A DNA stretch of 64,000 bases from an uncultured bacterium (lineage in GTDB: Bacteria; Omnitrophota; Gorgyraeia; Zapsychrales; Aceulaceae), in assembly GCA_937930175.1 (NCBI GenBank), contig CALGLP010000011.1, positions 28,776 to 92,775 of the forward strand. Direction: 5' to 3'. Numbering within the stretch: position 1 is the first letter of the stretch; each line of letters begins with the position of its first letter. Under the pieces are notes generated by a model, which was given only the letters and a program-made list of their open reading frames with translations, was not told the origin of the DNA and ran no database searches. Positions 1 through 50,970 of the stretch are shown piece after piece. The translations under genes were made by a program, and so were the position numbers.

Positions 1-1947
1 CACAAGAGCTTTTTCAGATTCATCCGTGATATTTGCAAGTAACTCACGAGAAGCTTTGGCTTTTGCCTTATTAATACCCTCAACGGATTTAATAGTCTCT
101 GCAACTTCACCTTGATACTCTAAAGCTACGGGAATAAACATGGTCTTGGCCATATCCACCGCGAGCCTTCCCTCATAATCAAGGATCGTTTTATACATCT
201 CTTGATAAACGTCATAACGTGAAAGAAGCTCAACCTTAGTTAAAACATTATATTTTTCAAAAAGCTTGATCGCTTCTGGCGTTGCAAGTTTTTCAAGAGC
301 TTCAGGCGTTGTCTTGAGATTCGCAAGGCCTCTTTTCTTCGCTTCCTTAACCCAATCTTCAGTGTAATTATCACCATTAAAAATCACTCTTTTATGCTTC
401 TTAATAATACTTTGAAGTAATTTCTGGACCGAAGTATTGAAATCTCTGCTAGCTTTTTTATCCGCTTCGAGAATAGTACAGATTTCGTCTAAAGCCTCGG
501 CGACAATTGTATTCAAGACAATGTTGGGACCAGATAAGCTCATGTTAGAACCAACCGCTCGAAATTCAAACTTTGCTCCTGTAAAAGCAAAAGGAGATGT
601 TCTGTTACGATCCGTGGCATCGCGCGGCAATTTTGGCAGCGAATCAACTCCGATCTCAAGCACTCCACCTTTTTTGGAGGTCTTGGCCCCACCTTTTTCG
701 ATCTGCTCAATAATATCTGTAAGCTGATCACCCAAAAAGATAGAAATGATCGCTGGCGGTGCCTCATGGGAACCCAAGCGATGATCGTTACCGGCAGAGG
801 CAACCGCAGCACGCAAAAGTTCCGCATGCGTATCCACCGCTTTGATGACCGCGCAAAGGGTCACTAAGAATTTCGCATTTTCATGTGGGTTTTCGCCTGG
901 CGACAACCAATTCTTATCATCTGGACCAACGATAGACCAATTATTATGTTTTCCCGAGCCATTGACACCAGCAAAAGGCTTTTCGTGCAACAGGCATGCA
1001 AGCCCGTGCTTTTCTGCAACCTTCTGCATCACTTCCATGCAAAGCATATTATGATCAACAGCTAAATTAAGACTCTCAAAAACAGGCGCTACTTCAAACT
1101 GCGCCGGCGCAACTTCGTTATGTCGCGTCTTGGTAGGAACACCAAGCTTCCACATTTCTTTATCTAAGTCTTCCATAAATCCAATGACGCGTGTCTTAAT
1201 GGCACCAAAATAATGATCTGCCATTTGCTGATGCTTGGCAGGTTCCTTACCAAAAAGCGTGCGGCCAGTTTGGATCAAGTCAATGCGCTCGTTGTAATAT
1301 GCGCGATCAATTAAAAAATATTCTTGCTCGCCACCAAGAGTTGCATACGCTTGCTTACCCTTGCTACTAATACCAAAAAGCTCTGCCAAGCGGCATACCT
1401 GCTTTGACAAGGCCTTCATAGAACGCAACAGGGGTGTTTTCTTATCAAGAGCCTCTCCGTGCCAGCCAATAAAATAGGTTGGAATGCACAGCGTTGTGCT
1501 TTGCACACCTTCCTTAATAAAAGCTGGACTTGTCGGATCCCATCCGGTATAACCTCTGGCTTCAAAGGTCGGCCGAAGGCCTCCCGAAGGAAAGCTTGAC
1601 GCATCAGGCTCTCCTTGGGTAAGTTCTTTACCAGAGAATTTAACGATCACCCCGCCCTCGCCATCGGGTGAAATAAAAGCATCGTGTTTTTCCGCTGTGA
1701 GACCGGTCAAAGGCTGGAACCAATGCGTATAATGCGTTGCCCCCTTAGAAACAGCCCAAGTCTTCATGGCATCAGCGACTTCATCGGCAATACTCGAATC
1801 AAGGACGCCACCGGTTCGAATGGTTGTACTCAAAGATTTATACGCGTTTTCAGAAAGGTAATTGCGCATCACCTTAAGACTAAAAACTTTCTCCCCGTAC
1901 AAATCTTGAATTTCTTTTTCTTTTCCTTTGTCTTGTGTCTCAGACAT
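1..1947 (-). CDS. glnN: Glutamine synthetase type III (GlnN), 5' part of gene; C-terminus lies beyond window start
   Basis: Hand translation of the minus strand from ATG (complement of 1945-1947) gives an uninterrupted reading frame to position 1: MSETQDKGKEKEIQDLYGEKVFSLKVMRNY...GEQEYFLIDRAYY...EVAPAQFE...HEKPFAGVNGSGKHNNWS. The length (649 codons in window, about 720+ aa full) and motifs fit GS type III. RBS GGAGG (complement of 1956-1960) lies 8 nt upstream. It is absent from the supplied ORF track, apparently because it is edge-truncated. Confidence 0.85.
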   Translation of the reverse strand, partial: MSETQDKGKEKEIQDLYGEKVFSLKVMRNYLSENAYKSLSTTIRTGGVLDSSIADEVADAMKTWAVSKGATHYTHWFQPLTGLTAEKHDAFISPDGEGGVIVKFSGKELTQGEPDASSFPSGGLRPTFEARGYTGWDPTSPAFIKEGVQSTTLCIPTYFIGWHGEALDKKTPLLRSMKALSKQVCRLAELFGISSKGKQAYATLGGEQEYFLIDRAYYNERIDLIQTGRTLFGKEPAKHQQMADHYFGAIKTRVIGFMEDLDKEMWKLGVPTKTRHNEVAPAQFEVAPVFESLNLAVDHNMLCMEVMQKVAEKHGLACLLHEKPFAGVNGSGKHNNWSIVGPDDKNWLSPGENPHENAKFLVTLCAVIKAVDTHAELLRAAVASAGNDHRLGSHEAPPAIISIFLGDQLTDIIEQIEKGGAKTSKKGGVLEIGVDSLPKLPRDATDRNRTSPFAFTGAKFEFRAVGSNMSLSGPNIVLNTIVAEALDEICTILEADKKASRDFNTSVQKLLQSIIKKHKRVIFNGDNYTEDWVKEAKKRGLANLKTTPEALEKLATPEAIKLFEKYNVLTKVELLSRYDVYQEMYKTILDYEGRLAVDMAKTMFIPVALEYQGEVAETIKSVEGINKAKAKASRELLANITDESEKALV

Positions 1948-2092
1948 TGCCTGTTCCTCCTAATTTTGATTGATCATTGAGATCTTTAGCTAATTCTTCT
2001 TTCGTATGCATAAACTTTTTACTAAATTTCTTTCCAGCATAAAACATACCTAGAAGAAATAAAACATTTAACGCAGGGACAAGGTAAGCCAT
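1940..2092 (-). CDS. Candidate 51-aa small membrane protein, translationally coupled between glnK and glnN
   Basis: [53 protein letters not shown]. Its ATG overlaps the glnK stop (TAATG) and its TGA overlaps the glnN start (ATGTCTGA). It has one predicted TM helix and a charged tail. It is below the 60-aa cut-off of the ORF track and its own SD is weak. Confidence 0.3.
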   Translation of the reverse strand: MAYLVPALNVLFLLGMFYAGKKFSKKFMHTKEELAKDLNDQSKLGGTGNV

Positions 2093-2433
2093 TATCCAAT
2101 CGCCTCTTTGCCTTCTTCTCCAGTACGAATACGAATACAGCGTGGCAGATCTAAAACAAAGATCTTTCCATCACCAATTTTATCCGTTCTTGCGCCTTTG
2201 ATTATAGCGCTAATCGTAGGTTCAATAAAGTTTTCATTTACAGCAATTTCCAAACGAATTTTCTTTAACAGATTTACTTCCTGCACGGCCCCACGATACG
2301 TTTCACTATAACCTTTTTGTTGGCCGCAGCCCAAAGCGTTGCTTACGGTCATTTTATATACCTTCGCATCAAAGAGTGCCTGCTTAACATCTGTCAATTT
2401 GTGCGGTTGAATCATCGCAATAATAAGTTTCAT
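2092..2433 (-). CDS. glnK: Nitrogen regulatory protein P-II
   Basis: 112-aa protein [13 protein letters not shown]...[10 protein letters not shown] with the typical P-II fold sequence (T-loop region YRGAVQE). It lies immediately downstream of amtB. Confidence 0.9.
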
Positions 2434-2450: not shown

Positions 2451-3911
2451 TTACTGTGTTGAATAAACTTCAAAACCCGCGTAGGCTTCCATGCCATGCT
2501 CATCAATATCAAGGCCGCGGATCTCTTCTTCACGTGTTACGCGCATACCAATAACAAATTTAACCACCTTCCAAAAAATAAAGGATCCTACGAGTGTAAA
2601 CACAATGGCGCTCAAAGAACCGAGGAACTGAATTCCTAAAAGCTTAAATCCTCCACCATAAAACAGTCCATTGCCGGTACTTGTTCCTGTAAGCTTATCC
2701 ACAGCGAACAAACCAACTGCAAGTGTTCCCCAGATACCGTTAGTCAGGTGAACAGCTAGCGCGCCCACAGGATCATCGATCTTTAATCGATCAAAAAATA
2801 AAACCGCGAAGACAACCAGAACGCCAGCGATCCCGCCGATCAAAAGCGACACCGGCAACGTCACAAACGCACATGGTGCGGTAATGGCAACCAATCCTGC
2901 AAGACAACCATTGATCGTCATGCCAAGATCCGGCTTACCAAGCCTTAGCCAAGCCGTTGCAGTTGCTGTCAATAAACCAGCAACAGCTGCTAAATTTGTT
3001 GTGGCCAGAATATGGCTGATCGCTTTAGCATCCGCAGCCATAGTGGATCCAGGATTAAAACCAAACCATCCCAACCACAAGATTAAACAACCCAAGGTGG
3101 CCGAACTCATGTTATGCCCAGGAATAGGGCTAGCTGAGCCATCCAAGCGATACTTTCCAATACGAGGACCCAACAGCAATATACCCACTAAACCTGCGAC
3201 ACCACCAACCGTATGGACAACTGTTGACCCGGCAAAATCAAAAAAACCTTTTTGTGCGAGCCAGCCGCCACCCCAAACCCAATGGCCGATAATCGGATAG
3301 ATAAAAGCCACAAGAAAAAGACTAAACAAAACAAAAGCTAAATACTTAACCCTCTCAGCCACGCACCCCGAAACGATGGTTGCGGCTGTACCAGCAAACA
3401 CCAGCTGAAAGAAAAACTTAGCAGTCAGCGGAATCCCTGTCCATCCGATTGCAGAATAAACCCCGGCGTAAGCTGCTCCTGCGGCTGGGCTGTTATCAGC
3501 ACCAGACAAAAAGAACAGTCCTTTGAGGCCAAGGAATCCATTGCCGTCACCAAACATCAATCCCCAGCCAACAAAATAAAATGCTATCGTACTCACAGCA
3601 AAGACAATAAAATTCTTTGATAGGATGTTAACTGCGTTTTTCGCGCGACAAAACCCCGACTCCACCAAGGCAAAACCTGCGTTCATCCAGAAGACTAAAA
3701 ACGCAGTCACCAGCGTCCAAATAGTATCCATAATCACCTTCTGGTCTGTCATGGCCTGGGTTAAAGCAGCGATCTTATCGCTTAGACCAGCGCTCGTCAT
3801 CTCCTGTGCCCAGCTAGGCCCCACAAACCCTAACAACGCTCCAAAGAGTAAAACCGGTAATATCCGTAAAATCTTTTTATGCAACATTTTATCCTCCCTA
3901 CCCTGAATCAT
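2451..3911 (-). CDS. amtB: Ammonium transporter
   Basis: 486 aa, polytopic, with Amt/MEP family signatures ([20 protein letters not shown], signal peptide). Classic amtB-glnK pairing. Confidence 0.9.
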
Positions 3912-3929: not shown

Positions 3930-4730
3930 TTAAAAATTATAAGTTAATGTCGTTCCCCAGAAAAATTCATCTTTACGCTTAGTCTCCCCCTCCTTGGCGA
4001 CCCCTCCAAATGGCGCATTCCAATTAACGCTAGGAGACAACTTCAAGCTCTTCGTGAGCGGAACAGTAAAGCCTGTAGTCAGGAGCACATCTCCGCCCTC
4101 GCCTGTAATAAAGAGATGCTTATTGTATCCCACATGACCACTTAAATCCAGCGTCACGCCATAAGAAGGAACGATCTCAAGGCTTTTAGCAAGATTGAGA
4201 ACCAGGTAATCTCCGTCTCCGCCGCCTTGGCTCTCCCGGCCGTGATCATGATACCATGTCAACGTCGGAGAAAGAAACGTTTCATACCCAAGCCCCAGGA
4301 TCGACTCCTTGCTAAAAGTCCCGGCCCCTGAAAAATCATAATAGACATAACCGGCTGTCACAGAAAGGGGCTGAAGATCCATCTTCCCTAGTTTTAAATT
4401 CTCAAACTTATGCGTGTAAGTCAGCGTGGTATCTATTTCGTTTGCATTAGGGGCATCGCTATAATCGCTAACCCCAAAATTACCCCAAACGTTCAAATTC
4501 CAGCCTTTAAAAGCGCTGACATTGATGCTTGGCTGAACAACATAGTCGTCATAGAGACGAAATCCACGCCACATATACTTGGAATAAAAGGACGTCGCTC
4601 CGCTAACTTCAATCTCTGCGCTCTTAAAAGCATCTCCAAAAAGAGTCTTGCTTTCTTCGGCAAAAGCAAGGCGCCCGAGACCCAGCCCTAAAATGACCCC
4701 GATAATACTTAACAAAAATTTATTTTTCAC
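3930..4730 (-). CDS. Outer-membrane beta-barrel protein, TorF/Gcw_chp-like putative porin (GTG start)
   Basis: Signal peptide, then SFYSKYMWRGFRLYDDYVVQPSINVSAFKGWNLNVWGNFG, which is the Y-x-x-RG...QP...GW...W-x-N pattern I recall for the Gcw_chp/TorF family. Beta-strand-like alternating pattern and C-terminal aromatic (F). GGAGG RBS 5 nt upstream of GTG. Confidence 0.45.
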   Translation of the reverse strand: MKNKFLLSIIGVILGLGLGRLAFAEESKTLFGDAFKSAEIEVSGATSFYSKYMWRGFRLYDDYVVQPSINVSAFKGWNLNVWGNFGVSDYSDAPNANEIDTTLTYTHKFENLKLGKMDLQPLSVTAGYVYYDFSGAGTFSKESILGLGYETFLSPTLTWYHDHGRESQGGGDGDYLVLNLAKSLEIVPSYGVTLDLSGHVGYNKHLFITGEGGDVLLTTGFTVPLTKSLKLSPSVNWNAPFGGVAKEGETKRKDEFFWGTTLTYNF

Positions 4731-4855
4731 TTTATCCTCCTTTTTTCTTTGAGAGGATCTTTCTTCTAAAAAGAAAAATCCTCGATTAAGCCTGACTCAC
4801 TTTTCCTAAAAATGACCTCTAAGAAAAATGAACTCTGCCAACATTGGCTTTTCGA

Positions 4856-4869
4856 GGACTTCATTGCCC
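4856..4869 (-). promoter_or_regulatory. ANTAR-type hexaloop hairpin, copy 1 (RNA GGGC-AAUGAA-GUCC)
   Basis: Same stem, loop AAUGAA (A1, G4). Its 3' CC is shared with a long-range stem (CCUCGAAAAGCC...GGCUUAAUCGAGG, + coordinates 4780-4857) that is followed by AUUUUUCUUUUU. This third terminator-like structure is a weaker call. Confidence 0.45.
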
Positions 4870-4912
4870 TGCGACAACTTATTTTCATCGACATTTCGTA
4901 AGTTACATCCTT

Positions 4913-4954
4913 ACACAAAAAAACCCGACAACCCCTTATCCTCGGAGATGTCGG
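4913..4954 (-). terminator. Intrinsic terminator T2 inside the leader (CCGACA-U-CUCC...GGGG-U-UGUCGG followed by U7)
   Basis: Minus-strand RNA CCGACAUCUCCGAGGAUAAGGGGUUGUCGG followed by GUUUUUUUGUGU. Confidence 0.5.
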
Positions 4955-4966
4955 ACTTCGCTGCCC
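4953..4966 (-). promoter_or_regulatory. ANTAR-type hexaloop hairpin, copy 2 (RNA GGGC-AGCGAA-GUCC)
   Basis: Same stem as copy 3, loop AGCGAA (A1, G4). Its 3' CC is shared with the 5' strand of terminator T2. Confidence 0.55.
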
Positions 4967-4967
4967 G

Positions 4968-5009
4968 ATAAAAAAAGAAAACTCTTAAACCCTTCAACGG
5001 ATTTAAGAG
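4968..5009 (-). terminator. Intrinsic terminator T1 inside the leader (11-bp stem, GUUGAA loop, UUUUCUUUUUUU)
   Basis: Minus-strand RNA CUCUUAAAUCC-GUUGAA-GGGUUUAAGAG followed by UUUUCUUUUUUUAUC. Confidence 0.6.
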
Positions 5010-5022
5010 GACTTCGTTGCCC
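5009..5022 (-). promoter_or_regulatory. ANTAR-type hexaloop hairpin, copy 3 (RNA GGGC-AACGAA-GUCC)
   Basis: 4-bp stem (one G.U) closing a hexaloop with A at loop position 1 and G at position 4. Its 3' strand shares 1 nt with the 5' strand of terminator T1. Confidence 0.55.
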
Positions 5023-5034
5023 TGCATTGATGAA

Positions 5035-5063
5035 AATATACATCACTGCTTTTGTTTTGTCAA
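5035..5063 (-). promoter_or_regulatory. Sigma70-type promoter of the nitrogen operon leader (-35 TTGACA, 17-nt spacer, -10 TATATT)
   Basis: On the minus strand: TTGACA (complement of 5058-5063), 17 nt, TATATT (complement of 5035-5040). Predicted TSS near 5028, giving a leader of about 300 nt before GTG at 4730. Confidence 0.5.
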
Positions 5064-5314
5064 GAAAATATTTTTCACCTGCTTTTTCACTACAAATCTT
5101 CACTACATCCTCGGCCTTGAAAAATATCCATTCCCGCTCGACACCGAAGGCACACGTTCACCCCCGGACGCCTGGAAAGAAAAAAACTACTTCTTATTCT
5201 TTTTTGGCTTCTTGATTTTTTTGTCTTTCTTTCCTTTGCTTTTATCTCCCAAATCTCTAGCCCCCCTTCCACTCTCTTCTCGTTCACACCCAAGGACACA
5301 TCGGAATCAATACC

Positions 5315-5479
5315 TTAAACAACTTCTTGGATCTCGCTTGTCACTACCTCAACCTGACCAGACTCGGACAAAGCCCGCATCGCCTTCTTTTCTAATTTTC
5401 TTTGTTTCTTTTCTTCAACCTTCTTTTTCTTCGCCAACTCTTTGAGATACTTTTGATGTGAATAATTATCCCTCGCCAT
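5315..5479 (-). CDS. Candidate 54-aa Lys/Glu-rich small protein
   Basis: ATG preceded by AGGAGA 7 nt upstream; MARDNYSHQKYLKELAKKKKVEEKKQRKLEKKAMRALSESGQVEVVTSEIQEVV. The surrounding DNA is purine-rich, so the K/E content may be compositional. Coding status is uncertain. Confidence 0.2.
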   Translation of the reverse strand: MARDNYSHQKYLKELAKKKKVEEKKQRKLEKKAMRALSESGQVEVVTSEIQEVV

Positions 5480-5526
5480 AACACTCTCCTTGATCTCCCT
5501 CTATTGCTGTAGGCTCAATAGAGAGG

Positions 5527-5555
5527 AATAAAAAAGGCAACCCCGATGGATTGCC
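5527..5555 (-). terminator. Intrinsic terminator after the GAF-GAF-ANTAR gene
   Basis: Minus-strand RNA GGCAAUCC-AUCG-GGGUUGCC followed by UUUUUUAUU, starting 42 nt after the stop. A second perfect 8-bp hairpin (CUCUAUUG...CAAUAGAG, 5498-5525) follows it. Confidence 0.6.
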
Positions 5556-5596
5556 TTAACACAATACTGTCGCTCTAAAGTAGAATATCTTTTCTC

Positions 5597-6838
5597 CTAG
5601 ACCTTGCGCTGAAAATCATCCATCAAGATAATGGACTCAGCAATCGCCTTCATGGTCTTGCACGAATCCATACTTTTTTTATGAATCATCTTGTACGCCG
5701 CGTCTTCACTAAGATTTTGCATGCGCATCACAATACCCTTAGCCCGCTCAATTAATTTTCGCGTCTCTAACGCCTCCTGAGCCTTAAGGGTCTCTTCCAT
5801 GAGTTTCGTATTCTCAACAGCAATAGCCGCTTGATTGGCCACCATTTGCAAAACATTAACCTCTTCCTGGCTAAACTCATGAGGATCTTGCGTATACACA
5901 TTAATAATCCCGATCACTTTATCTTTAATAACCATCGGAACAGAAACCATGGAGCTTAAACCTTCTTTAATCGCGAGATCGCGATAAGCATAACGCTCCT
6001 CGAGACGCACATCAAAAACAATCATGGGCTTTTTGGTCTTGACCACTTGCCCGCTCAAACTTTGATCCACCTTAATGTTCGGTTTACGCTTGTATTCTTC
6101 GCTTAAGCTCTGCGTGGCCTTGATCGCAAGCTCTTTTCCTTTTTCATCAAGAAGCATAATAGAACATATTTTAGAATTGATCATTTCCGCGGTAACCACT
6201 ACGATCAGGTTAAGGATCTCGTCAAGATAGCTTTCGGAGGTGATCGACTGGCTAACCTGAACGAGCTTATCAAACTGCACGGCTTTCTTCTTAGCCTCCG
6301 CATAAAGCCGGGCATTCTCAATGACCCCGCTCACTTGCTTGGCAATCGTCGACAACAACATAACTGTTTTGGGAGAATGCTGATACGGCTTCTTATGTTG
6401 AATATTAATAACACCCGTAGCCCTTTTCTTATAAATAATCGGAACCGATAGAAAGGCCTCGTACTTATCTTCTGGTAAAAGATCAAAACCTTTAAACCGT
6501 TTATCCTTGTAGGCATTTTCCTTAATATGAACGCCCTTACTTTCTTTAGCAACCCATCCAGTAATCCCTTCACCTATTTTCAAAGTCACCTTGCCTAATT
6601 CTTTAAGGTGAGGAGTTTTGGATGCCATCAAAATGAGGTTCTTTTCTTTATCATCAATGAGATAAATGAAAACGGAATCCGCTTGGGTGATTTCATTAAC
6701 GATCCCGACAACCTCAGACAAAATAGAACCAAGATCAAGTCCCGAGGAGGTCAGGTCGACGATTTTACGTAACGACATGACTTCTTGAGATGAGCTAACT
6801 TGTGTTTTTCTTTGCTTGAAACGAACACTCTCTGGCAT
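5597..6838 (-). CDS. GAF-GAF-ANTAR RNA-binding antitermination regulator
   Basis: Two GAF domains (GITGWVA...FLSVPI; SMVSVPMVIKDKVIGIINVY) and a C-terminal ANTAR domain (ALETRKLIERAKGIVMRMQNLSEDAAYKMIHKKSMDSCKTMKAIAESII). Confidence 0.8.
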   Translation of the reverse strand: MPESVRFKQRKTQVSSSQEVMSLRKIVDLTSSGLDLGSILSEVVGIVNEITQADSVFIYLIDDKEKNLILMASKTPHLKELGKVTLKIGEGITGWVAKESKGVHIKENAYKDKRFKGFDLLPEDKYEAFLSVPIIYKKRATGVINIQHKKPYQHSPKTVMLLSTIAKQVSGVIENARLYAEAKKKAVQFDKLVQVSQSITSESYLDEILNLIVVVTAEMINSKICSIMLLDEKGKELAIKATQSLSEEYKRKPNIKVDQSLSGQVVKTKKPMIVFDVRLEERYAYRDLAIKEGLSSMVSVPMVIKDKVIGIINVYTQDPHEFSQEEVNVLQMVANQAAIAVENTKLMEETLKAQEALETRKLIERAKGIVMRMQNLSEDAAYKMIHKKSMDSCKTMKAIAESIILMDDFQRKV

Positions 6839-6967: not shown

Positions 6968-7363
6968 ATGGAAAAGAAGGGCAATCAAAAAACAATTCTG
7001 ATTATTGATGATGATGTTCTCCAGATCAAGGCGCTCGAAAAAAAGCTTCCGGAAAGCGGCTATAATGTGTTAACCGCAACCAAGGCAGCCGACGGCCTTC
7101 AAATGGCCATGAAAAAATTCCCGGACTTAATTATCTTAGACGTCATGATGCCGATCATCAACGGTTACAATCTTTGCCAATTGCTGAAAAATGACCTCAA
7201 GCACAAAAGCATCCCGATCATTATGCTGACCTCCCGCGATAGCGAAAAAGATAAGAAAATCGGTCAAGACGTTGGTGCCGATGTTTATCTGATCAAGCCC
7301 CTGGACGTACCTCTATTGCTCATAAAAATCAAAGAGTTGCTCGCCCAAACACAGCTTACCTAA
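6968..7363 (+). CDS. Single-domain response regulator (receiver only)
   Basis: ILIIDDD...DLIILDVMMP...MLTSRDS...K motif set of CheY-like receivers. Confidence 0.85.
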   Translation: MEKKGNQKTILIIDDDVLQIKALEKKLPESGYNVLTATKAADGLQMAMKKFPDLIILDVMMPIINGYNLCQLLKNDLKHKSIPIIMLTSRDSEKDKKIGQDVGADVYLIKPLDVPLLLIKIKELLAQTQLT

Positions 7364-7425
7364 ACAAAGCGAAGGCAAGCGCTTCTTACATCTTCACAAC
7401 AACTTAACAAAAAAACTATTCTTAA

Positions 7426-7950
7426 TTATTTTCTGTCAAAAAAAGGATTTTTCGACATAGCAGCCAAGGGGATAGCATAAGCTACACGAACGTCTTTTCC
7501 TAAAAGCCCAAGCTCAAGCGCCGCTTGTCCTGCCGTGTACATCACACGATTATCAACACGATGGTGGGCCGCGACGCTAACCGCTGATCCAATCGCGATC
7601 CCAAGATCACCGGTATTAAACACACAAGGAACATCTTTTTGCTTCCTTTTACAATTTTTAAACCCGCACATCCCACACTTCTTAAGGCCCATAGGCTTAA
7701 TTACTGTCCCCATAAGAACCATCACAGGAGCTGATAAAATATTTTCCGCATCGCGCAAGAAAGCCGGCGCTTCACACTTGTGCCCAATTGCTTTCATCGT
7801 GTGAGAAATCCTCTGGATCTCTTTTTCTTCTGCAATACAAAAGGTAAAGGTATCCGCCCCTTTTCCCTTGGGCGCGGTGCGCGCAGCCAGAATCATTTTC
7901 TTGGCAACGTCTCTAATCGTCTCCTTCATCAACTGTTCCTCAGAAATCAT
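7426..7950 (-). CDS. Cys-rich DUF2148-like putative Fe-S/ferredoxin-domain protein
   Basis: CGMCGFKNC...PCVFNTGDLGIAIGSA motif region; the family assignment is from memory only. Confidence 0.35.
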   Translation of the reverse strand: MISEEQLMKETIRDVAKKMILAARTAPKGKGADTFTFCIAEEKEIQRISHTMKAIGHKCEAPAFLRDAENILSAPVMVLMGTVIKPMGLKKCGMCGFKNCKRKQKDVPCVFNTGDLGIAIGSAVSVAAHHRVDNRVMYTAGQAALELGLLGKDVRVAYAIPLAAMSKNPFFDRK

Positions 7951-8069
7951 TGAGCCTCCTCCTTATTACCCCTTCTTTAATTTTTTGTATATTATCACAA
8001 GACAAGATATTTCCAAGAGATTACTTTTTCCTTTGGTTTTCATCTTAAGTTAGGTAAAATACTTGCACC

Positions 8070-9182
8070 ATGGAAAAAACAAACATCACGATTATTGGCG
8101 CAGGGGTTTGCGGACTCGCTATTGCTTTGAAACTCTCAAAGAAATACAAAGATATTTTGGTCATTGAACAGCACGATTCATTTGGCCGCGAAACATCCTC
8201 TCGAAACTCTGAAGTCATTCATGCCGGACTTTATTACCCCAAGGATTCGCTCAAGGCCAAGCTTTGTATTGAAGGCAAAAAACTTCTTTATGCTTTTTGT
8301 GCAGAAAATAAGATCCCGCATAAAAATACGGGAAAACTCCTCGTGGCCTGCAATAACGAAGAGGCGCACGCCCTTGAAGCCCTTAAAAAAAATGCCGCGG
8401 AAAGCGGTGTCACCAATCTTCGCTTTCTCACGCAACAAGAATTAAAAGCCCTTGAACCAGATGTAACGGCTCTAGAAAGCCTTTGGTGCCCGGATACCGG
8501 CATCATTGATTCGCACAGCTTTATGAAATCACTCTTTGAACAATCTCAGAAACAAGGTGCAGAAATGGGCTTTGGCATTGAAGTCGTCAACATCACAAAG
8601 AAAAATCAAGGCTATAAAATCACGGTCAAAGAACCCGAAGGCGATCTCTTTTCTTATGAAACAAACATCGTCATTAATGCCGCTGGTCTTCATGCCGATC
8701 ACATCGCAGAACTTGCAGGTTTTGATATTAACGCGCTCGGCTACAAACTGCATTACAACAAAGGGCAATACTTTCGCATAAGCCATCCTCAAAAATTTTC
8801 CATCACCCATCCCATTTATCCACCGGCGAGCAAAACTGATTTAGGCATTCACGTGACTCCGGATTTAGCAGGTGGCCTTCGCCTAGGCCCGGATGCCCAC
8901 TATGCCAAAGATATCGACTACAGCATCAATGAAGAGGACAAGCAACATTTTGTGAGCTCGGTTGGACGTTTTCTAAAACGACTGACTGTGGACGATCTTG
9001 TTGCGGATACCGCGGGGATGCGCGCCAAGCTTCAAGCGCCAGGGGTCGATTTTAGTGACTTTGTGATTGCGGAAGAAACCGCGAAAGGTTTTCAAGGCTT
9101 TATTAATTTGATCGGGATCGAATCCCCAGGTCTGACCGCGTCTTTGGCCATTGCCCAAAAAATTGAGGGCTTTTTGTCGTAA
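8070..9182 (+). CDS. FAD-dependent oxidoreductase of the L-2-hydroxyglutarate oxidase/dehydrogenase (LhgO/L2HGDH) family
   Basis: N-terminal GAGVCGLAIA dinucleotide fold; SRNSEVIHAGLYYPKDSLKAKLC and GQYFRI align with E. coli LhgO segments ([28 protein letters not shown]). Confidence 0.65.
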   Translation: MEKTNITIIGAGVCGLAIALKLSKKYKDILVIEQHDSFGRETSSRNSEVIHAGLYYPKDSLKAKLCIEGKKLLYAFCAENKIPHKNTGKLLVACNNEEAHALEALKKNAAESGVTNLRFLTQQELKALEPDVTALESLWCPDTGIIDSHSFMKSLFEQSQKQGAEMGFGIEVVNITKKNQGYKITVKEPEGDLFSYETNIVINAAGLHADHIAELAGFDINALGYKLHYNKGQYFRISHPQKFSITHPIYPPASKTDLGIHVTPDLAGGLRLGPDAHYAKDIDYSINEEDKQHFVSSVGRFLKRLTVDDLVADTAGMRAKLQAPGVDFSDFVIAEETAKGFQGFINLIGIESPGLTASLAIAQKIEGFLS

Positions 9183-16333: not shown

Positions 16334-17380
16334 TTATGCTGAAACGAGATTAATCAATTCCTGCCCAATTTTCTCTAACGCCAACACCTTATCGACACAC
16401 TGACAATCAATCGCGGATTTATTCATCCCAAAAACAACCGAACTCGCCTCATCCTGGGCTAAGGCTTGCCCGCCGCAGCGCTTAATCTGCTTCATCCCTT
16501 CAACGCCATCATGACCCATGCCGGTCATCAAAAGCCCAATGGCCCGCGTCCCATAGCTTTCTGCAACAGACTTAAATAAAACATCTGCCGAAGGAACTAA
16601 AAAAACTTTCTTTTCTGTTTCCTCTCTGAGCTCAATCACGCCCTCGGGAGTAATCGTCATGTGAACATTGTCTGGGGCTAAATACACGTATCCATTCCTT
16701 AAGACATCTCCACTGCCCGGAACCTTGATCGTTAATGGACATATCTGCTGGAGCCATTCGGCCAAACCCTGAATAAATCCAGCCGACATATGCTGAACAA
16801 TCAAGATCCCCGCAGGAAAATCTTTAGGCAATTGCGATAAAAGCACGTGCAGGGCCTGAGGCCCTCCCGTCGAAATCCCGATCGCGACAACACGGCTCAA
16901 GGCCTTGTCGTCAACCCTTCTTTCGCCTTGAAACGAGACAGTCTTCTTGAGTTCCAGAACTTTAGCACTAACGGCTGCTTGACGCATCAAGCGCATCGGC
17001 CGAACACGCGAGGCAATGGTTACTTTTTCAATAAGACTTGCTGAAATCTCTTCGATATTATCACTCACCACAACAAAATCCATGGCTCCAATGGCCAGCG
17101 CCTTAACAACAACCTTAGGATCCATACCGCTGACAACAATAATCGACGTGGGAACTTCTGACATGATCAACTGCGTGGCCTCGAGTCCGTTCATGACCGG
17201 CATATTGATATCGATGGTGATCACATCTGGCTTCAAGATTTTTGCTTTTTCTAAACCTTCTTGGCCATTTTTGGCCAAACCAACGACTTCAACCTTTTCA
17301 TCAGACGTCAGAATTGCCCGCAGGGCTTCCCGCATCAGGGCTGAATCATCAATGATAAGAACGCGTATTTTCTTTTCCAT
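16334..17380 (-). CDS. cheB: Chemotaxis response regulator protein-glutamate methylesterase
   Basis: N-terminal receiver (VLIIDDSALMRE) and C-terminal CheB methylesterase (AIGISTGGPQAL...ILIVQHM). Confidence 0.9.
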   Translation of the reverse strand: MEKKIRVLIIDDSALMREALRAILTSDEKVEVVGLAKNGQEGLEKAKILKPDVITIDINMPVMNGLEATQLIMSEVPTSIIVVSGMDPKVVVKALAIGAMDFVVVSDNIEEISASLIEKVTIASRVRPMRLMRQAAVSAKVLELKKTVSFQGERRVDDKALSRVVAIGISTGGPQALHVLLSQLPKDFPAGILIVQHMSAGFIQGLAEWLQQICPLTIKVPGSGDVLRNGYVYLAPDNVHMTITPEGVIELREETEKKVFLVPSADVLFKSVAESYGTRAIGLLMTGMGHDGVEGMKQIKRCGGQALAQDEASSVVFGMNKSAIDCQCVDKVLALEKIGQELINLVSA

Positions 17381-17397
17381 AAAAATGATATCTTTTT

Positions 17398-17772
17398 CTA
17401 GCTACGAAGACCCAAATATAATTTAATTTTCTTGATAAGAAATTCAGGATACGGCGGCTTCACCACATAATCATCCGCGCCTTGACGGAAGGCCTCGCTG
17501 ATAATCTCCACGTCACTTTTAATGCTCAAAACAACAACAATCGTATTTTTTAAGATTGCATCCTTTTTAATCTTCGCGCAAACCTCAAATCCTGAGATAT
17601 CAGGCAGAATCAAATCAAGGATAATAAGATCCGGCATCATCGCACGGGCTTGCAACAAACCCTCCTTACCAGTCGTGGCCACTTCCGCGACAAGGCCTTC
17701 CGCTTTCAGTAAATCTTTGACGATCTGTGCATCGGTTTTCGAATCTTCAATTAAAAGAATTTTCTTGCTCAT
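17398..17772 (-). CDS. cheY: CheY-like response regulator
   Basis: ILLIEDSKTDAQ...IILDLILPDISG; a single receiver domain. Confidence 0.85.
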   Translation of the reverse strand: MSKKILLIEDSKTDAQIVKDLLKAEGLVAEVATTGKEGLLQARAMMPDLIILDLILPDISGFEVCAKIKKDAILKNTIVVVLSIKSDVEIISEAFRQGADDYVVKPPYPEFLIKKIKLYLGLRS

Positions 17773-17789
17773 AAAAGCTCCCGTTTCGT

Positions 17790-19916
17790 TTAGCCCAACA
17801 ACCGTTCAATGGTTTCTAAAAGACCTTCCGAGGTAAAATCTTTCTTTAAAATATAGGCGTCGGCGCCCACTTCAAGCCCGCGGCGCTTGTCCTCATCGGT
17901 TTCACGTGTCGTTACAATCATAACCGGAATCTCTTTATAAAAAGGAATCTTTCGAAGGCTTGCCACAAAATCAAATCCATCCATGCGCGGCATGAGAACA
18001 TCCGTGATAATCAAATCAAAGCTTTCTTGGTTCGCCCGATCTAAGGCCTCTTTCCCGTCACGCGCAATCACAACCGAAAACCCAGCAGCCTCGAGAATGC
18101 TTTTTTCAAGCATCGCCGTGCTCAAAACATCTTCGGCCAAGAGAACCGTTTTTTTCTTGCCCTTCACTAAAGCTTTTGGGGGCGCGGAAGGTTTTTTGAT
18201 CACAACGCCCTCCGCCGAACGAATCACAGACGCGATATCAAGGATAAGAATAACGCGGCCATTGCCTAAAATCGTGGCTCCGGAAATGTTGCTAACATTT
18301 TTTAAAGGATCGCCAATGGCCTTGCTAATAATATCCTGACGACCAATGAGTTCGTCAACTAAGATGCCAATTCTTTTTTCCACAGACTGAACGACAACCA
18401 CAGGAAGAAATCTTTTCTCGAAAATGCCTTTTCGCGGCAGATTAAAAATATCGCTTAAGCGCACCAATGGCAAAATATGGCCCTTCACGGTAATGGCTTC
18501 CTTGGTTTCTATTGTTTTAATTGCGCTAGGGTCAACGCGCAGGGTTTCCATCACTGTTTCGATCGGAATAGCAAAAATATCTGTGCCCGCGGCAACGAGC
18601 AAGCTTTCCGCAATGGCAAGCGTTAAAGGAAGTCTCAAAAGAAAACTTGTACCCAGTCCTGGCTTTGACTTAACCTCCACCATTCCCTTGTATTCAGCAA
18701 TGTGATCACGTACCACGTCCAACCCAACGCCACGGCCGGAAGTCTCAGAAACTTCATCGGTCGTTGTAAAGCCAGGTGCAAAAAGAATCTGATAAATTTG
18801 ATCATCCACCATATCACTCAAACGCTCTTGGGCGACAAACCCCTGAGCCACAGCCCTTTCTTTGACCTTGTCAATATTCACCCCATGGCCGTCATCAGCA
18901 ACCTCAATCACAACCCGAGAGCCTTCTCTGTATGCGGATAGCGTAATTTTTCCTTCAATAGGTTTTCCCTTTTCTTGGCGCGCTTGCGGCATCTCAATCC
19001 CGTGATCAACAGCGTTACGCAAAAGATGCATGATCGGGTCTTTCATGTGGTCAATAATCGCCTTGTCGATTTGCGTGTCTTCACCATGGATTTCAAACCG
19101 AATTTCCTTGCCCTTGGTGCGCGCTAAGTCACGCATCGCCCGTGAAAAATGATTAAAAAGATAGGAAACCGGTACCAAGCGAATCTTCATGACTTCATCT
19201 TGAAGGCTCTTGCTAAGCCGATCCATATTATTCTTGATCATATTAAAATCTTTGGTAAGGCCTCCCAGGTTTTCATCTAATTCTTTATTACCTTCGACCT
19301 TATCATTAAGACTTTGCACTAATTCATTCAAGCGAATCTTGCCAACAATCATTTCCCCGGTCAAGTTCATCAGCCGATTAAGCTTATCAATATCCACACG
19401 GATGCTTTCTTCAACGGCGGACTGAAGCGCTGAGGATTTTTGCGACACGTCAACAACTTCTTTTTCAATCCCTTGGGATCCTTGCGCAGGCTGCGGCACG
19501 GCCTGAGGGGCCTGACTTGGCGCGTGGGAAAAAAGATTCTTAACCTCTTCACAAAGATTAGAAACCGAAGAAGCTTCAATGCCTTTATCTGACCATGTTA
19601 CTTTGTCATCTAAAAGCGGCTCAATAGCATCCAAACATTTAAATAAAAGATCAACTTGTTCTTTGGAAAGGCTTAGATTTTCCTTGAGAACTTTTTCAAA
19701 AGCATCTTCCATGACATGGGCCAGATCTACAATACGCTTATAGCCCATCATGGTCGCTGAGCCCTTAATCGTATGCGTCTTGCGCATCAAAAGTTCGGCC
19801 AGGCTTCGGTCGTGCGGATTTTTTTCCAATTGCAAAAGCCCTGCACTGGTTTCCTGCAACAGATCCCTGACTTCTGCCTTAAAACTTTCAATATATTTTG
19901 ATCGATCAAACGCCAT
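17790..19916 (-). CDS. cheA: Chemotaxis histidine kinase CheA with C-terminal receiver (CheA-REC hybrid)
   Basis: Hpt (HTIKGSATMMGY), HATPase (GRGVGLDVV), CheW-like domain and a terminal receiver (VLLAEDVLSTAML...IITDVLMPRMDG). Confidence 0.9.
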   Translation of the reverse strand: MAFDRSKYIESFKAEVRDLLQETSAGLLQLEKNPHDRSLAELLMRKTHTIKGSATMMGYKRIVDLAHVMEDAFEKVLKENLSLSKEQVDLLFKCLDAIEPLLDDKVTWSDKGIEASSVSNLCEEVKNLFSHAPSQAPQAVPQPAQGSQGIEKEVVDVSQKSSALQSAVEESIRVDIDKLNRLMNLTGEMIVGKIRLNELVQSLNDKVEGNKELDENLGGLTKDFNMIKNNMDRLSKSLQDEVMKIRLVPVSYLFNHFSRAMRDLARTKGKEIRFEIHGEDTQIDKAIIDHMKDPIMHLLRNAVDHGIEMPQARQEKGKPIEGKITLSAYREGSRVVIEVADDGHGVNIDKVKERAVAQGFVAQERLSDMVDDQIYQILFAPGFTTTDEVSETSGRGVGLDVVRDHIAEYKGMVEVKSKPGLGTSFLLRLPLTLAIAESLLVAAGTDIFAIPIETVMETLRVDPSAIKTIETKEAITVKGHILPLVRLSDIFNLPRKGIFEKRFLPVVVVQSVEKRIGILVDELIGRQDIISKAIGDPLKNVSNISGATILGNGRVILILDIASVIRSAEGVVIKKPSAPPKALVKGKKKTVLLAEDVLSTAMLEKSILEAAGFSVVIARDGKEALDRANQESFDLIITDVLMPRMDGFDFVASLRKIPFYKEIPVMIVTTRETDEDKRRGLEVGADAYILKKDFTSEGLLETIERLLG

Positions 19917-19927
19917 AGCGAACTTCT

Positions 19928-21343: not shown

Positions 21344-21390
21344 TCTCTCCTCCTAAAGATTAGATAGATTATTCCCCTCGACGCAAATCC

Positions 21391-22376: not shown

Positions 22377-22384
22377 GGACGTGA

Positions 22385-23896: not shown

Positions 23897-23919
23897 TAAA
23901 TTATTGAAAATAGTAGGTT

Positions 23920-26112
23920 TTAGGAACGCCGCTTGAGCAGCATGCGAATTCGGGCAAGCAACTTTTCGGGATCAAAGGGCTTGCTCACATAATCATCGGC
24001 CCCGGCATCCAGGGCTTCAATTTCGCTAGCGCTATCAGTCTTGGCTGTCAACATCACAACAGGAATGGAAGCCGTTTCTAAAGAATTCTTTATCTTTCGC
24101 GTTGCACTCACCCCATCTAAAATAGGCATCATAATATCCATCATAATAAGATGGGGCTTCTTCTGATACGCAGCTTTGATGCCCTGCTCTCCATCCGCTG
24201 CCTCAAGAACCTCATAGCCTTCTTTAAGCAGTCGTGCCCGCAGAACCTTTCGGATGTCGTCTTCATCATCCACAACAAGAATAGTAAATCGTTTGTTCAG
24301 GGCGCGCTGCAAATCACCTGTAATGGCAGCTGCTTCTTGTTGTTCTTCTGGCGTAGACACCGACGAGACTTCTCTCTCAGGCTCTTTCATTTCTGTGTCT
24401 CTTACATCGCAAACAGTTTCTACCTCTTCAATCGTAGTTAATCCTTCGAGAACCTTACGAATACCAGATTCTGCCAATGATCGCATCCCATTAACACGGG
24501 CCACCTTCAGCATCTCGGCCTGGGGAGCCTTCTGGGCAATAAGCGTACGCAGTTGTTCATCAACTTTAACTATTTCACTAATCACGGTTCGCCCCAAGAA
24601 GCCCGTATAGCAACACCGATCGCATCCCTTGCCAAAAAAGAATTGAGTAATCTTGTTCTGCTGGATAAAAAGCCCAAACTTTTCATAAAGCTCTTGTTTT
24701 TGCTTCTGATCTGTCACCTCCAGCTTGCAATAAGGACAAATCGTACGTACCAAGCGCTGCGCCAAAATCAAGATGACAGACGAGGCAATCAAATAAGGCT
24801 CCAGACCAATATCCATCAGACGAACAACTGTAGCCAAAGCATGATTAGTATGAACCGAAGAAAAAACAAGGTGACCGGTTAACGAAGCGCGAAAAGCAAT
24901 CTCCGCTGTTTCAAGATCACGAATTTCTCCAACTAAAATAACGTTAGGATCTTGACGCAGAATACTTCTTAATCCTGTAGCAAAGGTAACGTCTTTAAAA
25001 GGGTTGACTTGAATTTGATTAATTCCTTGCATCAAATACTCAACGGGATCTTCAATGGTCACAATATTCTTTGTTTCACTCTTAATATGACTTAAGGCTG
25101 CATAGAGTGTTGAAGTTTTCCCTGAGCCCGTAGGCCCTGTCACTAAAATCATACCCTGAGGCTTACGGATCATCTGCTTGATCAAAGCAAGATCATCCTC
25201 GTAAAACCCAAGATGCTCGAGCTCCACCTGAGCCTCTTTTTTATCTAAAAGGCGCAAAACGATTTTCTCGCCAAAAAAGGTAGGAATAATCGAAATGCGC
25301 AAATCAACCTTACGTCCGTTAACCAAAAGACTGCATCGTCCATCTTGGGCTTTATGCGTCTCCGCAATATCCAAATTCGTAAGAATCTTGATGCGGACAC
25401 CCAAATTGGAATACAAACCAATTGGGATTTTCATAATATTGCGCAAATTACCATCAACACGGTAGCGTACCTCAACAAACTTTTCAAAAGGTTCAATATG
25501 AATATCACTAGCGCGAGCACGAATAGCATCATAAAGAATCGCATTGCCCAGCTTCACAACCGGAGAATGGTCCTCAAGTCCGGCTGCAGAAAGACTATGC
25601 ATCTTCTTGGCATCAATAATTTCATTATCTTTGATGATTTCGATCTTCGCCTGATCTGTGACATTTTTCATCAAATCATAGATCGAGTCGTCCAAGAGAT
25701 AATAGCGTTCAATGTAGCTTGCGATCTCACTCTTGCGAACCAACAAAGGCTTGATCTTGGCATGAACCAACATGCTCAAATGATCAAGCGCAATAACATC
25801 CTGAGGGTTACTCATAGCCAGAAGAAGGCTACCGCTTTCATAGCGCAGAGGAAAAACACCGTACTGCTTGGCTTTGTCGCTAGGAATTTCTTTAACAATC
25901 GCTTCATCAATTTTTTCTACGGAAAGGTTAGTTACAGGAATTTTATAAACTTCAGAAGCTGTCTGAATAAGATCTTCTTCACTTAAAAATTCCATTTCTA
26001 CAAGAAGCTCATGTAAAGGCTTTTTAGCTCCGATTTGTTTTATCTTCGCGTCTTCAATGTTATCTTGTGTAATAAGATTTTTCTTTAATAGCACATCCAA
26101 CAATGTGGTCAT
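23920..26112 (-). CDS. GspE/PilB-family secretion/pilus ATPase fused to a C-terminal receiver domain
   Basis: N-terminal T2SSE_N-like domain, Walker A LVTGPTGSGKTST, tetracysteine CPYC...CDRCC, then a receiver ILVVDDEDDIRKV...IMMDIMMPILDG...MLTAKTD...K. Confidence 0.85.
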   Translation of the reverse strand: MTTLLDVLLKKNLITQDNIEDAKIKQIGAKKPLHELLVEMEFLSEEDLIQTASEVYKIPVTNLSVEKIDEAIVKEIPSDKAKQYGVFPLRYESGSLLLAMSNPQDVIALDHLSMLVHAKIKPLLVRKSEIASYIERYYLLDDSIYDLMKNVTDQAKIEIIKDNEIIDAKKMHSLSAAGLEDHSPVVKLGNAILYDAIRARASDIHIEPFEKFVEVRYRVDGNLRNIMKIPIGLYSNLGVRIKILTNLDIAETHKAQDGRCSLLVNGRKVDLRISIIPTFFGEKIVLRLLDKKEAQVELEHLGFYEDDLALIKQMIRKPQGMILVTGPTGSGKTSTLYAALSHIKSETKNIVTIEDPVEYLMQGINQIQVNPFKDVTFATGLRSILRQDPNVILVGEIRDLETAEIAFRASLTGHLVFSSVHTNHALATVVRLMDIGLEPYLIASSVILILAQRLVRTICPYCKLEVTDQKQKQELYEKFGLFIQQNKITQFFFGKGCDRCCYTGFLGRTVISEIVKVDEQLRTLIAQKAPQAEMLKVARVNGMRSLAESGIRKVLEGLTTIEEVETVCDVRDTEMKEPEREVSSVSTPEEQQEAAAITGDLQRALNKRFTILVVDDEDDIRKVLRARLLKEGYEVLEAADGEQGIKAAYQKKPHLIMMDIMMPILDGVSATRKIKNSLETASIPVVMLTAKTDSASEIEALDAGADDYVSKPFDPEKLLARIRMLLKRRS

Positions 26113-47602: not shown

Positions 47603-47753
47603 AAAAACCCTTTCCTTAAAACGTCAACGATCTATCCTTCCCAACAAAAAACTATCTCAAAATATTAAAGATCACTCAAGACTTAAGTTCTAGGAAGTCG
47701 TGGCATCCGCGTTGACAACGCATAACCCTCTTTATCAAATCTTCTCTAGCAGC

Positions 47754-50805: not shown

Positions 50806-50970
50806 CTTGCCTTTCCATTATTTCTTTAAAACGCTAGAAATTAAAATTAATTTTAACATGATTCTCGGGTCGGAGCAAATAAATACAGCCCTAAAAAAAC
50901 CAGAAAGGCTAAAAAACATTACCATATCTTAAGAAATATGGTTTAATAATAGCATCTCGCAAATACCTTT

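Follow-up and report, generated by a model that had tools for sequence, protein, structure and literature searches.

A tandem-GAF ANTAR protein as a candidate one-component antiterminator for nitrogen assimilation in an uncultured Omnitrophota bacterium

When an ANTAR output domain is joined to two GAF domains and encoded ahead of a nitrogen-assimilation operon, what does the resulting protein act upon, and what does it sense? The question is raised by a 64,000-nucleotide (64-kb) stretch of DNA from an uncultured bacterium of the Omnitrophota (assembly GCA_937930175.1, contig CALGLP010000011.1, positions 28,776 to 92,775; this whole stretch is termed ‘the window’ below), in which a coding sequence at 5597..6838 of the minus strand (ATG start, stop codon at 5597-5599) specifies a GAF-GAF-ANTAR protein of 413 amino acids (‘the regulator’). 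Such proteins are neither new nor, as an initial annotation of this DNA had implied, rare: the GAF-ANTAR architecture is catalogued and abundant (bioRxiv 10.1101/660928; PMC12591593; PMC3369931) and accounts for the majority of ANTAR proteins in mycobacteria, where it is the commonest arrangement (bioRxiv 10.1101/660928). The architecture itself is already known, and databases contain many one-component ANTAR proteins with GAF or PAS domains; the GAF-ANTAR type lacks a characterised example. Although GAF-ANTAR proteins rank with the most numerous ANTAR types, no signal or target is known for any of them (PMC3369931, PMC7496416), and NasR and PAL are reported to be the sole characterised members of the one-component ANTAR subclass (PMC7496416); the inputs studied experimentally so far are receiver or pseudo-receiver, NIT and LOV domains. 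The analysis described here leads us to regard the regulator, with moderate confidence and by sequence and analogy, as a signal-responsive antiterminator of the one-component kind that acts on the transcription of nitrogen-assimilation genes.

The identity of the protein is the first step in that argument. Searches against Pfam return GAF_2 (3.5e-38), GAF (1.4e-36) and GAF_3 (1.3e-30), each over two stretches, and sequence matches in the PDB bound the two sensor domains at residues ~16-177 and ~192-345. The first domain (GAF1, PtsP-like; residues ~16-180, 6299..6793, minus strand) is delimited by its matches to 3ci6, to the NCBIfam PtsP model and in Foldseek, and the second (GAF2, PtsP/NifA-like; residues ~192-345, 5804..6265, minus strand) by Pfam GAF_2 at residues 205-342 together with NCBIfam, 3trc and 5w10. 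The remainder of the coding sequence (5600..5803, minus strand) corresponds to a long predicted helix (residues 324-374, coiled-coil-like) and the helices of the ANTAR domain. Support for ANTAR at the C-terminus had been set beforehand as a test, and Pfam places PF03861 at residues 352-404 at 69.2 bits, where the gathering threshold is 27.3; in the PDB sequence matches, the same region aligns with the ANTAR domains of Rv1626, EutV and NasR (4akk). Neither Response_reg nor HisKA, nor any other receiver or kinase domain, is found by Pfam in the 413 residues, of which the N-terminal 345 are taken up by the two GAF domains. The receiver-free GAF-GAF-ANTAR architecture that had been read from the sequence is therefore borne out by Pfam, by the PDB matches and by a structural model. 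On these domain assignments the protein is not a response regulator; it is classed as an ANTAR protein of the one-component type, with sensor and ANTAR in a single polypeptide, and as a member of the ANTAR family both by its domain and by its cognate RNA (below).

The AlphaFold2 monomer model (34 homologues in the alignment) has a mean predicted local distance difference test score (pLDDT) of 81, with a block at residues 341-410 of ~77-92, and shows, in order, GAF1, a long helix (156-197), GAF2, a second long helix (324-374) that runs unbroken into ANTAR, and the remaining ANTAR helices. No solved structure that spans both GAF and ANTAR appeared among the PDB sequence matches or in the Foldseek search. 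When the residues of EutV that contact RNA are mapped onto the regulator, both basic residues, the tyrosine and the methionine ‘plug’ are present, K143, K147, Y164 and M172 of EutV being retained in kind as K361, R365, Y382 and M390. K361 and M390 are invariant in a 34-sequence alignment (A2), R365 is invariant in alignment A1 only, and Y382 alternates with histidine.

What RNA might such a protein bind? The regulator gene precedes a nitrogen operon on the same strand that encodes a porin-like protein, the ammonium transporter Amt, a P-II protein and a type III glutamine synthetase (GSIII). The initial annotation had placed the gene ‘immediately upstream’ of this operon, which holds in that the gene does precede it; the closeness does not stand, because 866 nt separate the regulator’s stop codon from the operon’s first gene (4730), and the interval contains a promoter of the operon’s own and a spacer of ~470 nt. 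The intrinsic terminator that the same annotation had assigned to the regulator gene is present (5525..5557, minus strand): the hairpin AAGGCAAUCC-AUCG-GGGUUGCCUU plus UUUUUUAUU, at 5534-5557, lies 40 nt past the stop codon and folds with a free energy (dG) of -14.7 kcal/mol and a z-score of -4.0, a stability that was equalled in 0 of 200 shuffles. Some 470 nt downstream of this terminator sits a near-consensus sigma-70-type promoter (TTGACA-17-TATATT, 5035..5063, minus strand), the best of the region with 11 of 12 matches, from which the operon transcript is predicted to start a few bases ahead of the first of a series of small hairpins.

Those hairpins are built on the pattern GGGC-A[AG][CU]GAA-GUCC, which occurs in three exact copies in the leader (5022-5009, 4966-4953 and 4869-4856) and nowhere else in 64 kb. 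If up to two mismatches are allowed, six matches are found in the window where 0.84 are expected, a number reached in 0 of 100 shuffles; beyond the leader copies there are just three unconvincing two-mismatch matches, and no further target sites were found in the window. Every leader copy forms a stem of 4-5 bp that closes a hexaloop whose first base is A and whose fourth is G. The published ANTAR recognition element is a short stem topped by a six-nucleotide loop in which A occupies position 1 and G position 4, typically with two such elements in tandem; in eut leaders it takes the form AGCAANGRRGCUY and overlaps the 5' part of a terminator (PMC3369931). In the structure of EutV with RNA, the protein touches nothing beyond a single hexaloop, whose G4 is flipped out, and the backbone of the three base pairs that close it (PMC8934654). 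As a sequence, GGGCAAYGAAGUCC closely fits both the eut recognition sequence and the A1/G4 rule. A scan of the window against Rfam gave no family at its gathering score, and an E-value scan of the leader gave chance-level matches only; no curated RNA family covers these hairpins.

Motif scanning and folding divide the leader (minus strand throughout) into three units. In unit 1 (4968..5022) the hairpin GGGC-AACGAA-GUCC (5009-5022) is followed by a terminator, CUCUUAAAUCC-GUUGAA-GGGUUUAAGAG (4982-5009), and a U tract; the apical loop of this terminator is itself a G4 hexaloop (GUUGAA here; AAUGAA, GGUGAA or GAUGAA in relatives). In unit 2 (4917..4966) the hairpin (UC)GGGC-AGCGAA-GUCC(GA), at 4953-4966, lies inside the 5' arm of a terminator (~4924-4955) that ends at a U7 tract. 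Unit 3 (4821..4870) is a dual hexaloop in which AGGGC-AAUGAA-GUCCU is joined by a 6-nt linker to GCC-AAUGUU-GGC (4837-4848) and followed by a U-rich stretch. The first two units thus contain strong hairpins with U tracts (dG -17.2 and -22.6 kcal/mol, respectively), and in unit 2 the two structures compete, the 3' arm of the small hairpin forming part of the 5' arm of the terminator, such that forcing the hairpin destroys the terminator (-16.5 versus -21.9 kcal/mol). By themselves the leader hairpins contribute only about -5 to -6 kcal/mol in the folding calculations; such low stability suits an element that depends on a protein to outcompete the terminator.

Whether the regulator and these hairpins occur together in other genomes can be read from related loci. 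The regulator is 100% identical to a protein in public assemblies (P0001) and has hundreds of homologues of ~410 residues at 68-88% identity, the named ones of which come from Candidatus Omnitrophota; a second clade, at ~50% identity over the full length, includes Nitrospira and appears in databases as ‘GAF and ANTAR domain-containing protein’ (NCBI) or ‘signal transduction protein with GAF and PtsI domain’ (JGI). One Nitrospinota metagenome-assembled genome carries a copy at 55% identity. A HMMER search against 1.84 billion representatives was dominated by giant multi-GAF proteins, which score through summed stretches, and returned a few proteins of ~400 residues at 45-52% identity. The set assembled comprises 91 related loci, from Omnitrophota at 64-88% identity and from the ~50% clade.

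Same-strand nitrogen genes lie just downstream of the regulator in at least 16 of the 20 Omnitrophota-like loci that have at least 1 kb of downstream sequence; the genes are those for the porin, Amt, P-II, GSIII and NirB, or for a GOGAT-like protein with GdhA. A Pfam scan of the first two same-strand open reading frames (ORFs) downstream of the regulator (66 loci, 107 ORFs) identified NAD synthase in 19 (18 of which also bear CN-hydrolase, and thus represent glutamine-dependent NadE), Amt in 11, an UrtA-type binding protein in eight, GSIII in four, P-II in four and GlnD in two. A promoter of the form TTGACA...TATAyT between the regulator’s stop codon and the first hairpin is also found in seven relatives (L001, L002, L003, L005, L006, L008 and L010), at distances from the stop codon of a few bases to ~100 nt (no more than ~25 nt in most, ~100 nt in L005).

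The RNA motif follows the regulator in the same way. The counts that follow come from custom scripts with set criteria rather than a calibrated covariance model, the first of them with a strict pattern (GG[GA]C-[AG]NNGNN-G[YU]CC, with the third position paired). On the regulator’s strand the density of this pattern reaches 0.453 per kb over the 2.5 kb that follow the regulator, versus 0.023 per kb elsewhere on the same strand and 0.030 per kb on the opposite strand, an enrichment of 15- to 20-fold; at least one copy lies within 2.5 kb downstream in 19 of 24 Omnitrophota-like loci. Of the 79 downstream motif copies, 58 are overlapped by a hairpin running into a T tract, compared with 3 of 35 controls. 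Among 57 non-redundant hairpins linked to a terminator, 22 have another hairpin with an A..G.. hexaloop no more than 60 nt upstream, where dinucleotide shuffles predict 1.4. The stems of these upstream hairpins vary in a compensatory manner (GGAC/GUCC, AGAC/GUCU, GAAC/GUUC, CAAC/GUUG and CGAC/GUCG), an illustration rather than an unbiased covariation statistic, as pairing was required by the detection rules. If the pattern is relaxed to the outer GG..CC and the closing C-G pair, the excess on the regulator’s strand at the third pair consists of G·U, A-U and G-C, with non-pairing combinations at background. Copies also occur within operons, in the gap between the P-II gene and a second amt gene (L008) and in that between the P-II gene and GSIII (L002, L020).

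The arrangement of regulator, hairpin, terminator and nitrogen gene thus recurs in Omnitrophota and in the ~50% clade, including Nitrospira. The suggestion that the adjacent leader is the regulator’s target gains by this result, as hexaloops of the ANTAR type co-occur with the regulator family in at least two phyla, and we regard the RNA target and the regulon as well supported by comparative sequence evidence. The opposite view would be that the adjacency is coincidental: another ANTAR protein, encoded elsewhere, would serve the leader, and the regulator described here would control something else. Other ANTAR genes may lie outside the 64-kb window, and in this genome a terminator and ~470 nt of spacer part the regulator from the leader; the linkage between regulator and motif is nonetheless kept across Omnitrophota and the ~50% clade even where the downstream genes differ, and a coincidence appears most improbable.

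Which signal, then, would reach the ANTAR domain? The GAF domain of NifA is sensitive to 2-oxoglutarate, and in some species to P-II as well; NKFDE (N-K...F-x3-D-E) is the signature of GAF domains that bind cyclic nucleotides. Inspection by eye revealed NKFDE in neither GAF domain of the regulator. Among NCBIfam models, the isolated GAF1 matches PtsP (PRK11061, EI-Ntr) best, at 2.5e-22 over positions 3-161, and then NifA (8.7e-11), whereas the isolated GAF2 matches PtsP (4.9e-16) and NifA (6.4e-16) about equally, followed by FhlA (1.7e-8), with NreA and others behind. GAF1 aligns with the GAF domain of Acinetobacter PtsP (3ci6) at an E-value of 4e-23, with 34% identity over 162 residues, and the same structure is the best single-domain match in Foldseek (template modelling (TM) score 0.86-0.89); GAF2 matches another PtsP GAF domain, 3trc (6e-13), and 5w10 (2e-12), which was deposited as a cGMP-specific phosphodiesterase. 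The GAF domain of PtsP reportedly binds both glutamine, with an inhibitory effect, and 2-oxoglutarate, with a stimulatory one, and so reports the balance of nitrogen and carbon (PMC13104625, PMC4848567). Because both GAF domains match those of PtsP and NifA best, direct sensing of nitrogen status, through 2-oxoglutarate and/or glutamine, is the most economical model that sequence and analogy suggest.

Two other accounts leave the antiterminator and its RNA target in place and change the signal. In one, the GAF domains would respond to a second messenger or to a signal unrelated to nitrogen (cAMP, cGMP, c-di-GMP, redox or haem), tying nitrogen assimilation to the global state of the cell. The sensor half as a whole lends itself to this idea, in that its top Foldseek matches (1mc0, 3lfv and 1ykd; E 1e-17 to 7e-17) are the tandem GAF-A/GAF-B regulatory modules of PDE2A, PDE5 and CyaB2, and the helix-joined tandem layout of the cyclic-nucleotide GAF proteins (PDE2/5/6, CyaB2) is present in the regulator; the match of GAF2 to 5w10 points the same way, and c-di-GMP is reported to modulate the activity of NasT (PMC10783516). 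Set against these similarities of topology, the strongest sequence matches of both domains are to PtsP and NifA and not to cyclic-nucleotide GAF domains, and the signature motif is in neither by eye. We consider a signal of this general kind doubtful; for a cyclic nucleotide in particular, which had been listed among the possible ligands, the evidence points neither way.

In the other account, the GAF domains would be controlled by a protein, the likeliest being P-II (as GlnB acts on the GAF domain of NifA in some proteobacteria), or through partner switching of the kind seen with AmiC-AmiR and NasS-NasT, and nitrogen would be read by P-II and GlnD. That GAF2 matches the NifA domain as well as it does that of PtsP would suit such a scheme, as would the frequent presence of P-II genes within the regulated operon and of GlnD downstream of the regulator in L081 and L082. 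P-II is, though, a target gene that lies outside the regulator’s own transcription unit, and the best match of GAF1 is a GAF domain reported to bind metabolites directly. Moreover, the absence of a kinase or receiver partner from the regulator’s transcription unit, already remarked in the initial annotation, extends to its relatives, as no gene for a partner kinase or binding protein is conserved beside the regulator in 70 related loci. Control by a partner protein is, on balance, rather unlikely.

Direct sensing of nitrogen status leads to the following proposal for how the operon might be switched. Transcription of the nitrogen operon would start constitutively and stop by default at the tandem terminators. 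Upon nitrogen limitation the GAF module would flip the ANTAR output, presumably dimeric, to a state that binds RNA, the likeliest trigger, by analogy with the GAF domains of PtsP and NifA, being the binding of 2-oxoglutarate and/or the loss of glutamine. The regulator would then stabilise the weak GGGC...GUCC hairpins as they leave RNA polymerase, and the captured hairpins would withhold the base of the terminator stem and so permit read-through into the genes for Amt, P-II and glutamine synthetase. Three such units in series would multiply the ratio between the ‘on’ and ‘off’ states and thereby sharpen the response. The weakest links in this mechanism are the choice of ligand and the direction in which the operon would respond.

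Several observations weigh against this reading. At four of the eight positions where EutV contacts RNA, the regulator has a different residue (R168 is replaced by H386, N173 by D391, R175 by C393 and R177 by T395). The strict motif lies within 2.5 kb downstream in only 28 of 57 loci of the ~50% clade. The PtsP and NifA matches are domain-level ones that fall far below the cut-offs of the full-length models, and NCBIfam has a limited set of models that contain GAF domains. The hairpin of unit 1 shares no more than 1-2 nt with the terminator, and both structures can be present at once (-16.5 versus -17.2 kcal/mol); therefore, simple mutual exclusion fails to explain read-through at that unit. 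Finally, unit 3 has no convincing terminator, the structure found there being a weak candidate only.

The last of these points bears upon a further possibility, namely that the regulator binds the hexaloops and acts mainly on translation or on the stability of the mRNA, as is reported for the targets of mycobacterial ANTAR proteins; ANTAR targets that work on translation have been described (bioRxiv 10.1101/660928). Besides unit 3, such a role might be read into a third dual hexaloop in L001, which lies ~45 nt ahead of the ribosome-binding site (RBS) and has no U tract, and into a 31-nt hairpin at 4753-4783 of the window, just ahead of the RBS. Units 1 and 2, by contrast, have clear terminators well upstream of the RBS, and the overlap of a hairpin and T tract with 58 of 79 downstream motifs is what termination would call for; action chiefly at the level of translation or stability is accordingly judged quite unlikely.

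How does the proposed antiterminator compare with systems that are known? Its nearest counterpart in design is NasR of Klebsiella oxytoca, which likewise holds sensor and ANTAR in one polypeptide, requires no kinase, and acts upon A1/G4 hexaloops in a nitrogen-assimilation leader with an intrinsic terminator. The two differ in that NasR has a NIT input for nitrate and nitrite where the present protein has two GAF domains of the PtsP/NifA type, that NasR targets the nasF operon rather than genes for Amt, P-II and glutamine synthetase, and that NasR has been characterised experimentally, whereas the GAF-GAF-ANTAR regulator is known from its sequence alone. EutV/EutW of Enterococcus faecalis, in which a coiled-coil helix precedes ANTAR where the regulator has a predicted coiled-coil-like one, shares with it dual hexaloops that overlap terminators, several key residues for RNA contact and the presence of several regulated terminators per locus; EutV, however, is activated by phosphorylation of a receiver domain and controls ethanolamine utilisation, and the linker between paired hairpins is 5-12 nt for EutV versus ~25-30 nt in leaders of the Nitrospira type. 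Geobacter sulfurreducens possesses GnfR, an ANTAR response regulator under a kinase cascade, unlike the one-component regulator considered here. The likeness lies in the use of ANTAR-dependent antitermination to control genes for nitrogen fixation or assimilation (PMC2995071; PMC3369931).

PtsP (EI-Ntr) and NifA provide the best sequence matches of both sensor domains, and in the case of 3ci6 a matching fold, but PtsP has a phosphotransferase output and NifA acts as a sigma-54 activator, whereas the output here is an RNA-binding antiterminator domain. The actinobacterial GAF-ANTAR proteins and PAL (PAS-ANTAR-LOV) are similar in being one-component ANTAR proteins with generic sensor domains; PAL senses light, mycobacterial ANTAR targets act on translation, and the actinobacterial GAF-ANTAR proteins have no assigned ligand or target. 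The survey of Ramesh et al. (2012) predicted ANTAR RNA motifs upstream of genes for Amt, P-II, glutamine/glutamate synthase, glutamine synthetase and urea transporters in other taxa, but assigned no GAF-ANTAR regulator to them, and its supplements mention neither Nitrospira nor GAF (PMC3369931). A search of the literature, in which subscription journals were incompletely covered, found nothing on this GAF-ANTAR family, on Omnitrophota or on ANTAR regulators of Nitrospira.

The comparison defines what the locus may offer: an unusually full, testable package made up of a highly conserved regulator of ~410 residues, an explicit RNA target that adjoins it, a coherent nitrogen regulon and GAF domains related to two classic nitrogen-metabolite GAF domains. 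The GAF-ANTAR system probably governs nitrogen assimilation in Omnitrophota and in Nitrospira-type lineages, and would provide a clue to the control of that process both in an uncultured phylum and in Nitrospira, which includes key nitrite oxidisers and comammox organisms. A larger claim can be entertained only tentatively, as a possibility that we would not yet favour: that the tandem-GAF ANTAR protein serves Omnitrophota and Nitrospira-type nitrifiers as their main nitrogen regulator, a functional equivalent of NtrC, NtcA or GlnR that would read 2-oxoglutarate and glutamine directly and switch Amt, P-II, glutamine synthetase, nitrite reductase, urea uptake, NadE and GlnD purely by antitermination from constitutive promoters. 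Were that so, a ligand and an RNA target would for the first time have been defined for a GAF-ANTAR protein; if confirmed, the system would also supply a compact, metabolite-responsive protein-RNA switch usable as a part in synthetic biology.

The members of the family differ among themselves in ways worth recording. In the ~50% clade, the gene most commonly found directly 3' of the regulator is that for glutamine-dependent NAD+ synthetase (L034, L035, L037, L051, L056, L058, L059, L061, L080-L082, L091 and others), and in several of these loci a unit of hexaloop and terminator lies between the two genes, which together suggest that NadE may be under nitrogen-dependent antitermination in this clade. 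Loci of the same clade have a different porin, ahead of urtA. On the upstream side the neighbours, judged by eye from their sequences, are housekeeping genes: those of the 3-dehydroquinate synthase, chorismate synthase and secretin types next to the regulator in the ~50% clade, and respiratory-complex subunits in Omnitrophota. One Omnitrophota-like contig (L021) carries a full unit (GGGC-GAAGAG-GUCC, terminator and U7, at 94-150) upstream of the regulator gene itself, which suggests autoregulation, or inclusion of the regulator within a regulated operon, in some genomes. At another Omnitrophota-like locus (L019, 2067-4266), a gene for a receiver domain and an apparent group II intron reverse transcriptase (judged by eye) replace the nitrogen genes downstream, and the locus looks like one that has been rearranged or invaded.

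The spacer between terminator and promoter in the present genome (5064-5533, minus strand, ~470 nt) holds an ORF for a lysine-rich peptide of 54 residues (5315..5479, beginning MARDNYSHQKYLKELAKKKKVEEKKQRKLEKK...), with a Shine-Dalgarno-like AGGAG ahead of it. Neither the interval 5064-5596 nor the peptide has a counterpart, as DNA or as protein, in the 91 related loci, and both were rejected as components of the system; because of this lack of similarity the spacer is taken, on sequence comparison, to be a lineage-specific insertion, and spacer and separate terminator to be peculiar to this genome.

The operon itself begins, on the minus strand, with the gene for the porin-like protein of 266 residues (3930..4730), which has a signal peptide, is rich in beta-strand-type sequence and has no match in Pfam or NCBIfam. 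This gene lies directly upstream of amt in Omnitrophota (the two are co-conserved in L001, L005, L008 and L011), and its product may be an outer-membrane channel for ammonium or urea. It is followed by the genes for Amt (2451..3911; PF00909, E 3e-122), P-II (GlnB/K, 2092..2433; NCBIfam P-II, E 6e-33) and GSIII (1..1947, its 3' end beyond the window), the last identified from its translation and weak NCBIfam matches to GlnA/GSIII; its homologues at related loci bear GSIII_N and Gln-synt_C. About 10 nt ahead of the AAGGAGG ribosome-binding site of the porin-like gene, the hairpin at 4753-4783 (minus strand) has a 14-bp stem, GAGGAUUUUUCUUU-UUA-GAAGAAAGAUCCUC, and no U tract; its role may be one of stabilisation or processing. 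It is closely preceded by a long AU/GU-rich hairpin at ~4792-4832.

Divergent from the regulator is a block (6968-9182) that encodes a single-domain receiver (131 residues, 6968..7363), a protein with a DUF2148 ferredoxin domain and a 370-residue protein whose N-terminal sequence, judged by eye, resembles an FAD-dependent oxidoreductase. The receiver gene was considered as a hidden partner of the regulator and rejected as a general feature, since only L008 and L010, the closest two relatives that include an upstream flank, retain it and the block, and more distant members do not.

Elsewhere in the 64 kb no further nitrogen genes were found, the remaining genes being instead of the chemotaxis-like, pilus ATPase, glycogen and YfhO-like kinds. 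The stretch at ~45000-57000 differs in composition from its surroundings, with a GC content of 0.36-0.40 against 0.43-0.45 elsewhere and a strong positive AT skew of 0.17-0.31; two large minus-strand genes scanned within it encode YfhO-like membrane proteins of ~740 residues, and the stretch may be a cell-envelope glycosylation island of other origin. A chemosensory cluster on the minus strand (16334-26112) encodes CheB, a CheA-REC hybrid, an MCP and a CheR-TPR protein, and adjoins a type II/IV secretion ATPase with a C-terminal receiver fusion (23920..26112), next to which stand the genes for glycogen metabolism.

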